DNA from: Eledone cirrhosa
Taxonomy: Eukaryota
DNA length: 64,000 bases
Direction of reading: 5' to 3'
NCBI GenBank assembly: GCA_964016885.1
Contig: OZ024749.1
Coordinates: forward strand, 30,070,001-30,134,000
The notes beneath the pieces were generated by a model. It saw only the letters and a program-made list of their open reading frames with translations, was not told the DNA's origin and ran no database searches. The position numbers and the translations under genes are program-made. Within the stretch, counting starts at the first letter, position 1, and every line of letters starts with the position of its first letter. This document shows, piece after piece, positions 31,586-56,172 of this stretch.

Positions 31586-32094
31586 ACAAATATCCCTCAA
31601 GTGCCACAAATAAAATCGAAAAGTCACACAAGGAATGTGTTTCTTTCCTATATGTGTCTTTTACAGGAACACTAGCAAAAAAAAAAAAAAAAAAATGAAG
31701 ACACAGCAGCATTCAATACACATAAAATCTAGGATAGAAAATAGCCCAACCCCTGATTTAAAACACGACCTAAACAAACTGGCAAAGATGAGAAGATATA
31801 TATTAAAAATAGAAAAAAAAAAATTATCAGAAATTGAAATAGATCTTGTCTTTAAAAATACGTATAGAATACTGATATCGCAACATAGGCAAATATACAA
31901 ATGAAAGGAAATATAAGCAGGCATATATTGGTAAAAGAAGCCTCTTCTAAATGCATTGCAACTGACAATATATCTTGAGTTCAACGGACTATAATCAACA
32001 TATAATCCACATGATAGGTGCAATGTGTTCGAACACGGAAGAGTCGAACTCCCACTGCGACCACCATCTCTCTCGCCCTCCCCATATCTCTGTA

Positions 32095-33830: not shown

Positions 33831-33880
33831 CGTTATTGACTTGTTTCATGTATATATATATATGTGTGTTTGAATACGAT

Positions 33881-34455
33881 GTATAAAGCATATGAAGAAA
33901 CAATTCTAATCCTGTAGGAGTCATTTCTATATATATATAAATATGTATAAGCAGACGAATGAAACAGTTCTAATCCTGTAGGAGTCATTTCTATATATGT
34001 ATATAAATATGTATAAGCATATGAAGAAACAGTGTTAATCCTGTAGGAGTCATTTCTATATATGTATATAACTATGTATAAAGCAGACGAATGAAACAGT
34101 TCTAATCCTGTAGGAGTCATTTCTATATATGTATATAAATATGTATAAGCAGACGAATGAAACAGTTCTAATCCTGTAGGAGTCATTTCTATATATGTAT
34201 ATAAATATGTACAAGCAGACGAATGAAACAGTTCTAATCCTGTAGGAGCCATTTCTATATATGTATATAAATATGTATAAGCAGACAAATGAAACAGTTC
34301 TAATCCTGTAGGAATCATTTCTATATATGTATATAAATATGTATAAGCAGACAAATGAAACAGTTCTAATCCTGTAGGAATCATTTCTATATATGTATAT
34401 AAATATGTATAAGCAGACGAATGAAACAGTTCTAATCCTGTAGGAGTCATTTTTA
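33881..34455 (+). repeat. 66-bp minisatellite, about 9 copies, containing the 3' half of a hammerhead
   Basis: Unit gtataagcagacgaatgaaacagttctaatcctgtaggagtcatttctatatatgtatataaatat; matches 12392-12420. Followed by a tail homologous to 12450-12500. Confidence 0.93.
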
Positions 34456-35069
34456 TATATACAATATAATAAAGATGCCTGTAATCTACCAACATATTGA
34501 GTACCTTTTTTGACTGTGGTTAACCTCGAAACAACTAGGGAATCTACATACCGTATGTACATACAGAGAGACAGACAGATACACACAGTTCACAAGATAG
34601 AATATGATGCAAATTTAGATGTTTTTAACTTACAGGAGAAGTGAGAAAAATGGAAAAACAGAGAGAGAGAGAGAGTGTGGGGAGGTGGTGAGAAGTTACT
34701 TATTCTATACCAGTTAAAAGGTTAGGAGGAATCAGTTCACTCGTTTGAAGGTTAAATCAACTGGTGTGATATTTTAATGCCTGCAATATTTACTTAAGTT
34801 ATTTATTTATCTATCTATTTGTTTGTTTAGATAGAGTTGTTATTTCTACCGAACTACAGCCACAAACACAGACACACACACACACACACACACATACATA
34901 CACATACACGGACACATACATACGCTTATATAACTTCCAGGTACCTACCTGTTTTATCCCTATCCGAACTCTCCATTTCCCGACGAAGGACTTCCGTGCG
35001 AAGTGTCAAACCCTCCCCCACTTCATTCTAAGTGTGATCCTTGTGATCCAAATAAGACTTCAAACCAAT

Positions 35070-40669: not shown

Positions 40670-41705
40670 ATAAAATATTAAAGAAATAATGAATAAACAA
40701 TTCCTTATATTAAACAAAAAAAGTTCATTATTTAACGATCGTTTCTAGGGTATATATGTGTTATAATTGGTATGCATATTCAACAGATCTATGTACAAAA
40801 TTATACAAAATTATACAAATTATCAAGATTAAATATACATACCTAACACATATATACGCCGTCTTCAGAAATAATGAAGTATATTTATTGATAATAACAA
40901 CAATTCAAAATATCAGTTCAAAATTGACCAATGAAAACACAAAGGGTTAAAAGCAGTTCGGTGTGTGTATATACATGTAAAATCCTTACACATATATTAC
41001 AATAATGTGTGTATAATTTGTATGCGCATACTAAAAAGATGGATGCAAACACAAAATTTCAAGGTTAATATCTCTGTAAGCTTAATGCGCTGATAAGATG
41101 CACATTGATACTTATGGAGTCAAGCATATAAATATATTTTTTCATACTCACACATATCAGTATAATCACACATACATGCGCGTATATGCATAAATATACA
41201 CATAACCACGAACATACAAACACACACACTCCCCCACTCACATTTATATATGTGGATATAAAATCATAAGCACATAGAAATTAAGTCACTCACATAAAAC
41301 ACTGGCACACACATTTCAAGATCAAGATACAGAAATTAGGTGGGAGGGGGGGAGGGGTCAGTATTCAATTGTCTGAGCAGACTGCCTAATATAAATGTAT
41401 CTATAAATTAAGAAAAATAAAAAAAATAAAAAAATAAAAACAATAAAATATAATAAATATAATATAATGTACATACACATCCAGATATATATACACATAC
41501 ATACATGTACGCGCACATAGAGATATTTACGCATACACACATACACACATACATATACAGTCATACACACACATACACTTACACGAACATACACATACAC
41601 ATATAAAAAGATATATATATACACACTCACACGCGCAACACATACACACATACACATATATATAAAAAATAGATAATAAAGATATATATCCATACATATA
41701 TATAT

Positions 41706-43989: not shown

Positions 43990-44917
43990 CATACATATAT
44001 ACACACATATACATACATACAGATACACATACACAACACACACATATACATATACATATACATATACATATCTTTTTCAAAAAATTGCACAGAATATATT
44101 AACTAGGTATATATCCAAAACACATCCCATTCTATGATTACATGACATTCTGCAATTCGTCTGTATAAGGATACTAATTTTAAGCAAATTAAAATTAAAG
44201 TTATAGGTTGATTAAAACTAAAACCAAATAATAAATATATTTCCAAAATGTATATTAATTAGGTCTATAATACTAAAAATTCTTTCTCCGTCATTGGATA
44301 CATGATATTATTTTGTTATATTTTATCTGTAAAAGAATTATAATAAAAGGTTTAAATAAATTAAAATTAATCTATAAATTAAATTACTAAGTATATATTA
44401 GTAATATTTAAAGGTTTTTCACAATTTATGATTACATATTATTTTCTCATCTGTAATAAATGCTTGACTCCATAAGTATCAATGTGCATCTTATCAGCGC
44501 ATTAAGCTTACAGAGATATTAACCTTGAAATTTTGTGTTTGCATCCATCTTTTTAGTATGCGCATACAAATTATACACACATTATTGTAATATATGTGTA
44601 AGGATTTTACATGTATATACACACACCGAACTGCTTTTAACCCTTTGTGTTTTCATTGGTCAATTTTGAACTGATATTTTGAATTGTTGTTATTATCAAT
44701 AAATATACTTCATTATTTCTGAAGACGGCGTATATATGTGTTAGGTATGTATATTTAATCTTGATAATTTGTATAAGTTTGTATAATTTTGTACATAGAT
44801 CTGTTGAATATGCATACCAATTATAACACATATATACCCTAGAAACGATCGTTAAATAATGAACTTTTTTTGTTTAATATAAGGAATTGTTTATTCATTA
44901 TTTCTTTAATATTTTAT
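40670..44917. mobile_element. Inverted repeats of about 455 bp (40670-41125 and 44460-44917) enclosing a 3.3-kb microsatellite-rich non-coding interior; non-autonomous PLE-like
   Basis: Arms are near-identical (mirror ORFs 40756..40950+ and 44637..44831-). Each contains an HHR, and a one-sided tail lies at about 40537-40670. Confidence 0.85.
44709..44863 (+). ncRNA. Type I hammerhead, canonical core, very long stem II (mirror copy at 40724-40878 minus)
   Basis: ttcattattt-CTGAAGA-cggcgtatatatgtgtta...taacacatatatacccta-GAAA-CGATCG-TT-aaataatgaa; perfect 10-bp stem I and palindromic stem III. Confidence 0.82.
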
Positions 44918-45049
44918 ATATATATATATATATTTTAGAAAGTGACGTTTTTTTTACAAAATGAAAAATAACCGAGGTGTCCTACACGAGTGAAAGTATA
45001 AAGAAAAAGAGAGATGTGAGAAAAACCACAGACCCTCCATCTCAACTCA

Positions 45050-45087
45050 CCTTTTGAAAAGCAGAAAAACTGCGAAACCGGTAAAGG
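45050..45087 (+). ncRNA. 38-nt minimal hammerhead, U3-A8 core variant (second copy at 54815-54852 minus)
   Basis: cctt-TTGAAAA-gcag(aaaaa)ctgc-GAAA-CCGG-TA-aagg, all stems perfect. Lies in a dispersed element of about 215 bp (44945-45160 and 54747-54990) that ends at (TA)n. Confidence 0.8.
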
Positions 45088-45156
45088 AACCAAATAAATA
45101 TATATATTTAAAAAAAAAATAAGACTCCAGTTGCATTTTCGATTTCATCTCTTTTT

Positions 45157-45218
<62 letters not shown>

Positions 45219-54683: not shown

Positions 54684-54751
<68 letters not shown>

Positions 54752-54999
54752 GAGATGAAATCGAAAATGCAACTGGAGTCTTATTTAAAAAAAAAATATA
54801 TATATTTATTTGGTTCCTTTACCGGTTTCGCAGTTCTTCTGCTTTTCAAAAGTAGAGTTGAGATGGAGGGTCTGTGGTTTTTCTCACATCTGGTTCTCCA
54901 TCTCAACTCTACTTTTTTTTGATTTCATCTCTTTTTCTTTATACTTTCACTCGTGTAGGACACCTCGGTTATTTTTCAATTTGTAAAAAAACCCTCACT

Positions 55000-55096
<97 letters not shown>

Positions 55097-55314
55097 ATAT
55101 ATATAAAATATATAAATATATATATATATATATATAATATATATTTATATATATATATATATGAAATATATAAATATATAATAAATATATATATATGTAT
55201 ACCTATACACACACTCACATGCATATATATATATCTATCTATCTAAGGCGGGTAAAATTCCCGAGATCCATGGACGAGTTCGCTCCAGCGGTCTCTGTCC
55301 CTCATTATCGCTTC

Positions 55315-55532
55315 CATGTCCTCATGAAAAACTCAGAGCTGTATGGGAGCATCCCAAAAGTCAGCTCAAAAGTGACACAGAGGAGACTGTGGTTGGCTGG
55401 ACATGCTCACCGACATCCAGAGTTGACATTGCACTCAGTGCTCCTGTGGGAACCCCTACATGGACACACTAGAAGAGGAAGACCAAGGTTAACGTATGTT
55501 GATGCCCTAAAGACAGACACTGGTCTGTTGGA
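55315..55532 (+). mobile_element. RTE-superfamily LINE C-terminal fragment
   Basis: NSELYGSIPKVSSKVTQRRLWLAGHAHRHPE...[25 protein letters not shown]. Confidence 0.8.
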
Positions 55533-55533
55533 G

Positions 55534-55584
<51 letters not shown>

Positions 55585-56172
55585 CATATATATATTCATA
55601 CACACACATACACACTTACACATATATATATATATTTATACATACCTATACATATATCCACACATACATATATGTACATATAGCAGATTATCTATTGTAT
55701 AATATTGTTTGTATGTGTGTGTGTCTGTGTGTGAGTCTGTGTGTGAGCGTGTGTTTGTGTGTGTGTGTGTATATACATCGATATAATGGACTTCTATCAA
55801 AGGTTTCTTTACAATAAACACATAAGGGACATTGGTGGAGACTTGATGTCTTATAACTGACATCAAATATTTATTGTTAATCAATAAGTCTTATTACGAC
55901 GCTAAAATACACTCCTTCCGTAGTAATCAAACGAACCATGTTTTGAAATTCAAATAAAATAAGATATAAAACTGTCTCTCATTTTTGTCTGCTTCTGAAT
56001 GAGCGTGTGTGTGTGTGTATACAGACACTCTCACACACACACAAACATATATATGCACACACACACATATTTATATATAAGTATATGTATATATATATAT
56101 ATATAAAGACTTAATTTTGTGTATGTCTGCTTGTTTATATGTATATATACATATATATATACATACATATGT

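Follow-up and report, generated by a model that had tools for sequence, protein, structure and literature searches.

U3-A8 hammerhead motifs as the family-wide state of some Penelope-like retroelements in the genome of Eledone cirrhosa

The window analysed here, a 64,000-nucleotide stretch of the Eledone cirrhosa genome, contains ten type I hammerhead motifs in which the core reads TTGAAAA or TTGAGAA. A sequence parse places all ten inside pseudo-LTRs (pLTRs) of Penelope-like retroelements (PLEs), where the motif lies shortly before the element's 3' end and downstream of an open reading frame (ORF) for a reverse transcriptase (RT) and a GIY-YIG endonuclease. The original prediction, which was centred on the core at 45054(+), had located these cores correctly; the nine others lie at 54849(-), 23187(+), 20402(-), 21036(+), 20909(-), 13240(+), 13159(-), 17037(-) and 19374(+). 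Its further details, concerning intact stems, mirror copies and the independence of the families, did not hold. The ten motifs originate from six insertions, because the 'mirror' copies are the inverted 5' duplications of PLEs. Inverted 5'-truncated copies are a standard signature of these elements (PMC8557442, accessible text), and the mirror arms are therefore not independent observations.

Two of the six insertions belong to the family that we call A. The first (44931..45163, + strand) is 5'-truncated and lies beside a (TA)n tract; blastn resolves it into a pLTR fragment at 45012-45163 and an inverted piece at 44931-45012. Its minimal hammerhead motif (45050..45087, +) can be parsed as a 4-bp stem I (CCTT/AAGG), the U3-A8 core TTGAAAA at 45054-45060, a 4-bp stem II (GCAG/CTGC) with a 5-nt loop, GAAA, a palindromic CCGG, U16.1 and A17, and the predicted cut falls between 45083 and 45084. 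The second motif (54815..54852, -), which had been taken for the mirror of the first, lies in a separate insertion (54740-55000) of another subfamily, 9.8 kb away, and each of the two insertions has an inverted piece of its own. A perfect inverted repeat of 461 nt (40670-41130 and 44457-44917, 3.3 kb apart) lies directly to the left of the 45050 insertion. Endonuclease fragments upstream of family A motifs, 46-54% identical to the family B protein, were found at two genomic loci only (L122 and L123).

Family B occupies 20253-23336, where a 5'-truncated PLE ORF (21880..23069, -) with an RT YLDD motif, a CX4CxxC linker and a GIY-YIG endonuclease is flanked by the 3' pLTR and an inverted copy of it (23070-23336). 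This inverted copy lies where the insertion is truncated at its 5' end; the two pLTR copies are 98.9% identical over 261-267 nt, and each contains a U3-A8 motif (20363..20404, -, and 23185..23226, +). A Pfam search with the truncated window ORF returned 0 families; a full copy of the element matches RVT_1 (E 4.6e-7), and many genomic copies carry 777-aa frames. The full protein has GLKF (the GxKF motif), DKG, YLDD and the CX4CxxC linker before a C-terminal GIY-YIG domain, an architecture of Neptune/Nematis type as judged by motifs rather than by named reference elements, and with the two types not separated. At locus L116 (537-1818), a 427-aa frame lies upstream of the RT-endonuclease frame and overlaps its start, which suggests an ORF1 joined through a frameshift. 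Of 17,312 candidates for the ORF, 150 were scored, of which 149 had 99% identity and the remaining one was the window copy itself; with a median divergence of 0.7% from the column majority, the family is very young.

Nested within the 3' region of family B is the family C insertion, the pLTR of a Hydra-clade PLE, which forms a 98.8% palindrome at 20806-21139. One arm holds a motif at 21031..21124 (+) with the core TTGAGAA, a 5-bp stem I, a long helix II and a 6-bp helix III, and the other holds its inverted counterpart at 20821..20914 (-). The genomic form of this family consists of 3.54-kb tandem units encoding a 786-aa protein with RWR, DKT, YRDD and CxCX5C, in which Pfam found 0 families. 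All of the Hydra-clade hallmarks were matched, namely an RWK-like motif, DKT, a CxCX5C linker and the absence of GxKF/Y, and we assign the family to that clade by its published description rather than by a tree with named reference elements.

The remaining two insertions are of family D. The first is a 100% palindrome (12998-13401) with motifs at 13237..13273 (+) and, inverted, at 13126..13162 (-); the second (16876-19560) has one motif in its left arm (17004..17040, -) and one in its right arm (19371..19407, +), with an inverted pair of endonuclease C-terminal fragments at its centre (18072..18345; 51-52% identical to the B protein). The U3-A8 pair described earlier for all four of these arms is present, together with a further change that had been missed: all four read GCAA for GAAA (A13C). 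Elsewhere in the genome, D motifs lie downstream of ORFs whose identity to B is mostly 51-61%, falling to 42-49% in L134, which is frameshifted. An alternative parse of D with the loop GAAA as core was rejected, as it leaves no stem II and no U16.1, and homology to A backs the CCGG register. Four more TTGAAAA strings, at 13044, 13349, 16922 and 19475, belong to the tail of D rather than to its hammerhead cores.

In families A, B and C, every position of the core (N3-U4-G5-A6-N7-N8-A9, G12-A13-A14, A15.1-U16.1 and H17, with a Watson-Crick 3-8 pair) is satisfied, the pair being U3-A8. A stem II with G10.1-C11.1 is present in 10/10 motifs, at 4-8 bp. Stem I is more variable, and the earlier statement that stems I-III stay intact does not apply to it: it has 2 bp in B, three A-U pairs in D, and 3 bp plus a mismatch at 54849. 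The corresponding stem I duplex energies are predicted at -8.0 kcal/mol in C and -2.8 at 45054 (4 bp), where the stem would hold, at -1.4 at 54849, where it is marginal, and at +2.7 in B and +2.4 in D, where it is unstable.

As a check against chance occurrence, we considered the core both alone and within its structure. Alone, the heptamer YTGANRA is not enriched in the window (167 observed against 155.6 +/- 12.3 expected). A structural descriptor that left positions 3, 7, 8 and 13 free gave 30 matches in 264 kb, made up of the window and 200 kb of its flanks, against 4 in the reversed control, none of the latter being U3-A8-A13; the whole hammerhead structure exceeds chance. The 30 matches comprise 15 with U3-A8-A13 (2 of which stand alone and are probably due to chance), 7 with U3-A8-C13 and 8 with C3-G8. 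This count understates the canonical motifs, because the descriptor misses some of them, such as those at 12377 and 15552.

Canonical C3-G8 motifs of four other PLE-like families lie in the window at 8637(+), 12377(+), 15552(+), 45461(+) and 45317(-), the last of these arms having lost G12, and the hammerhead-like motifs of both kinds number at least 15. Rfam reported no hammerhead in the window at the gathering score and none among the best 150 of 355 weak matches, most of which were microsatellites or palindromes matched to miRNA models. This miss is not specific to U3-A8, because the canonical motifs were missed too. Other features of the window include a partial tRNA-like match at 2912-2967 (-) (RF00005, 37.7 bits), possibly a tRNA-derived SINE head; minisatellite arrays at 711-2787 and 33833-34589 with long repetitive open frames that are likely non-coding; and, at 55174-55683 (+), a fragment that we take to resemble the C-terminus of a LINE protein of RTE type.

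We determined the state of positions 3 and 8 across the 3.0-Gb genome with sequence patterns specific to each family, run with controls; the matches listed for a pattern are the first 100 by position. Family A has 12,698 matches and 0 control matches, and 12,527 of them (98.7%) are U3-A8. Among the exceptions, 117 lack U3 (G8 in 0 of the 100 of these that were listed) and 54 have U3 with another base at position 8 (27 G, 15 C and 12 T). Family B (2,182 matches, 0 control) and family C (2,217 matches, 0 control) are each U3-A8 in 100/100 of the matches listed, as are 33/33 family B copies found through an upstream anchor. The family D pattern, with 11,528 matches and 0 in the control, does not display position 3; A8 is present in 99/100 of the matches listed, and 43/43 copies examined individually are U3-A8. 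A fifth family, E, found outside the window, has 6,077 copies and U3-A8 in 99/100 of the matches listed.

Thus U3-A8 is the inherited norm of whole families and not the decay of single copies, as the original prediction had proposed; the family consensus is not canonical, and the genome-wide tabulation that it called for gave U-A almost throughout, with mixed copies rare. That positions 3 and 8 always change together is true of families, none of the 30 census matches being mixed, and untrue of individual copies, since 171/12,698 in family A are sporadically mixed. Six family A copies with a mixed C3-A8 core lie about 9.6 kb apart at C1:348863669-348911673, probably because a single mutant copy was duplicated locally in tandem.

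The variant is also common, as had been claimed, although canonical motifs are more numerous. Three canonical families (K1 with 32,038 copies, K6 with 19,946 and K5 with 1,331) have C3-G8 in 99/100 each of the matches listed, so that 34,702 U3-A8 copies in five families, approximately 39% of the hammerheads counted, stand against at least 53,315 canonical ones, a total over these three families, with further canonical ones seen in the census of the window and its flanks. A search for CUGANGA does miss the U3-A8 motifs, and descriptors built on it undercount PLE hammerheads.

Two of the families counted outside the window have a different organization. Family E (L072:1266-2100, L165 and L184) consists of 591-bp tandem non-coding units with a long helix II and a palindromic helix III; no blastn match to C and no linked ORF were found, and it looks like a non-autonomous retrozyme-like element. 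Family K5 (L124:6223-6706 and L185), with 483-bp tandem units and a canonical core, likewise looks like a non-autonomous tandem retrozyme-like element; it shares with family A the stem I CCTT/AAGG and the CCG/CGG ends of helix III. In their tandem units both resemble the animal non-LTR retrozymes, as far as these are described in the accessible text of PMC7229834 and bioRxiv 10.64898/2026.07.22.740005.

The families had been presented as four separate ones. The pLTRs of A and D, however, align at 72-79%, and the C-terminal proteins of A, B and D are 46-56% identical; the B pLTR has no blastn match to A or D. Because of the likeness of the A and D pLTRs and of the three proteins, we count U3-A8 in A, B and D as one inherited event, not three. 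In an RT tree of 8 rows (family A, known from a C-terminal fragment only, is absent), family C is sister to K11, a C3-G8 family, with support of 99/99, within a clade that also holds the C3-G8 family K1. Families B and D group together (93/98) apart from C, with K6 (C3-G8) between. Constraining the three U3-A8 rows to a single clade costs 38 log units and is rejected (p-AU 5.65e-6), so that the minimum is two origins, not four; U3-A8 likely arose at least twice in this genome, and family E may represent a third origin. The claimed recurrence across four families is thereby reduced: the swap does recur, and neither the mirror arms nor the three related families are independent evidence of it.

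Several features of the tree bear on how it should be read. The grouping of C with K11 was supported both here and in a first tree of 13 rows, from which L134 (frameshifted), L236 (unrelated), L205 and L238 (gappy) and L128 (redundant) were dropped, and a long-branch warning applies at K6. The motifs of K1 and K6 are tied directly to ORFs, that of K11 only through a pLTR tail capping an ORF fragment in L073. Since pLTRs could swap between elements, the RT tree need not equal the ribozyme tree.

Natural U3-A8 hammerheads have been published before, both in general and in PLEs (PMC3088659, PMC4209133). Reading the swap as compensatory was correct but already described, and our finding adds mainly scale because the core was known. 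In the accessible text, Perreault et al. 2011 (PMC3088659) report natural covariation from C3-G8 to U3-A8 and cite activity in vitro; the swap is the same, but there it occurs in rare variants, whereas here it is fixed in high-copy families. Cervera and De la Pena 2014 (PMC4209133) describe U3-A8 in the min-HHRs of Schistosoma mansoni PLEs (Cercyon), with about 1,300 hits; min-HHRs in general cleave weakly, as dimers, according to the accessible portions, and the supplement shows UUGA cores. By sequence, families A, B and C fit this kind of motif in all features except the stem I of B. The likeness to those min-HHRs extends to the pLTR site, the short stem I, G10.1-C11.1, U3-A8, and occurrence mostly as single truncated copies along with close opposite-strand pairs; the palindromic, dimer-only helix III is matched by A, B and D and not by C. 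As far as that source goes, the differences are that about 35,000 copies in five families are counted here, that in A, B and D stem II is 4-5 bp long and A9 is followed by no additional base, that a single genome has U3-A8 in two distant PLE clades, and that D adds A13C.

The elements themselves also have close parallels. Families B and C carry the hallmarks of the Neptune/Nematis-type and Hydra-clade PLEs described by Craig et al. 2021 (PMC8557442), including the upstream ORF of B, and, as in the PLEs of that paper, both sit in (TA)n and have inverted 5'-truncated copies. The Penelope-like habit of inserting tandem and inverted 5'-truncated copies in microsatellites is matched. The accessible text of the same paper calls Hydra hammerheads canonical and mentions no U3-A8 core, whereas family C is U3-A8. 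The Anolis Poseidon element PAc (Frangieh et al. 2024, PMC11167929) likewise has a pLTR hammerhead near the element end; its dependence on the 3-8 pair, as C3-G8, was assayed according to the parts accessible, while the motifs here are U3-A8 and known from their sequence.

We consider it most probable, at roughly 0.6, that the fixed U3-A8 motifs are slow, probably protein-assisted self-cutting RNAs in active master elements, and that the copies in the window are passengers. That the motifs function as hammerheads is inferred from their sequence. Tandem transcripts, with units of about 3.5-4.9 kb, would be cut after nucleotide 17. In A, B and D, whose helix III is ACCGGT, no hairpin forms and the palindrome is predicted to pair with a second copy of itself (-8.3 kcal/mol); these families would need two copies joined through it. 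The 6-bp helix III of family C can close alone as a hairpin (-4.9 kcal/mol) and would let the motif fold as a monomer. The route from C3-G8 to U3-A8 was likely two GC-to-AT transitions with a U3-G8 wobble as the intermediate, and we propose that the change was kept because pairing between positions 3 and 8, not the identity of the bases, is needed. It would then be a tolerated compensatory change and not an improvement, with no need for positive selection. The copies were multiplied through retrotransposition, inverted 5' duplications included. Protein assistance has a precedent in the PLE hammerhead of PMC11167929, which requires the 3-8 pair. Against activity, only G3-C8 rescued strongly in a pairwise mutational scan, as far as its accessible text goes, and other double mutants of the motif scanned were low (PMC9901934).

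Families A, B and D all retain TTGAAAAG and CG(A/C)AACCGGT, while their stem II is paired by differing sequences. Although its pLTR has no blastn match in A or D, B has kept the core together with a stem II that is paired by other bases, and this speaks for purifying selection that acted in the master lineages, not in the dead copies of the genome. The competing explanation, which we hold to be rather unlikely, is that the hammerhead of the A/B/D lineage has become a vestige without catalysis. The master elements would have decayed stepwise through U3-A8, a shrinking stem I and A13C, and the sequence would be retained for RNA dimerisation, for RT binding or as a promoter element, or simply by descent. 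The weak stem I of B and D would suit a vestige, as would the fact that family D, with A13C in 11,365/11,528 copies (98.6%; 163 are not C13), was amplified as well as A. In the accessible text of PMC11167929, PLE hammerhead mutants insert unimpaired in vitro, where cleavage is dispensable, and RNA-seq showed no ends at the cut site; the Naiad PLEs, a clade without hammerheads, proliferate and thrive (PMC8557442, accessible text). Decay is harder to reconcile with A and B, whose proteins are about 46% identical and whose flanks have no blastn match, retaining all the other core nucleotides and a stem II paired by different sequences, with the youth of family B, with two changes that restore the 3-8 pair on two branches and 0 mixed families, and with the strong stems of C and E.

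Family D is the most doubtful case. Changes at A13 strongly reduce hammerhead cleavage. We class D as hammerhead-derived and not as a member, because it lacks A13, and its sequence, with the 3-bp stem I, predicts a weak or inactive hammerhead. C13 is common to at least three loop II subfamilies. When these are compared, the motif shows 1 real difference (a loop indel) and 1 alignment artefact in 31 columns, the flank just upstream 0 differences in 19 columns, and the region further upstream 10 in 72; selection on the D structure after A13C cannot be demonstrated, because the motif is no better conserved than its 19-nt upstream flank. It is improbable, in our judgement, that the D core is a catalytically active natural triple variant, in which U3-A8 is joined by C13 and stem I has three A-U pairs, enabled by dimerisation and by the element's own RT-endonuclease protein. 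We found no report of A13C in a hammerhead ribozyme in the searchable literature; the largest survey of PLE hammerhead variants may contain C13. That survey, by Lunse et al. in 2017, reportedly covers about 150,000 variants. The figure-only supplements of PMC4209133 and PMC3088659 may show C13 as well, and the novelty of a fixed C13 family is uncertain.

Another improbable reading is that U3-A8 (and C13) was favoured by positive selection because it attenuates cleavage and leaves more full-length RNA uncut for reverse transcription, which would help the families amplify. Unprocessed RNA was the dominant insertion substrate in vitro, according to the accessible text of PMC11167929, and among the U3-A8 families, which are large, there are young elements that are still intact; yet canonical families are equal or larger, at 32,038 and 19,946 copies, and positive selection cannot here be separated from neutral compensatory drift. 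That the variants merely resemble hammerheads by chance in AT-rich DNA, or arose as sporadic mutations within canonical families, has a negligible probability despite the lack of enrichment of TTGANAA alone, being refuted by the 98.7% of A copies with U3-A8, the absence of C3-G8 among the A matches listed and the pattern controls of 0.

Slow self-cutting RNAs in active master elements remain our preferred account of the fixed U3-A8 motifs. Beyond the known variant, this analysis contributes its scale, a minimum of two origins within the genome and a family with fixed A13C; the same compensatory change would have occurred repeatedly, within a single genome, in two distant PLE clades. If the D core were active, the rule of an invariant A13 would be overturned. 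If it is inactive, D would provide an 11,500-copy natural demonstration of PLE retrotransposition without hammerhead cleavage, beside an intact sister, A. Families A (GAAA) and D (GCAA), sisters that were both amplified to approximately 12,000 copies, together with the young intact protein of family B, offer a test of the role of the hammerhead in PLE retrotransposition.
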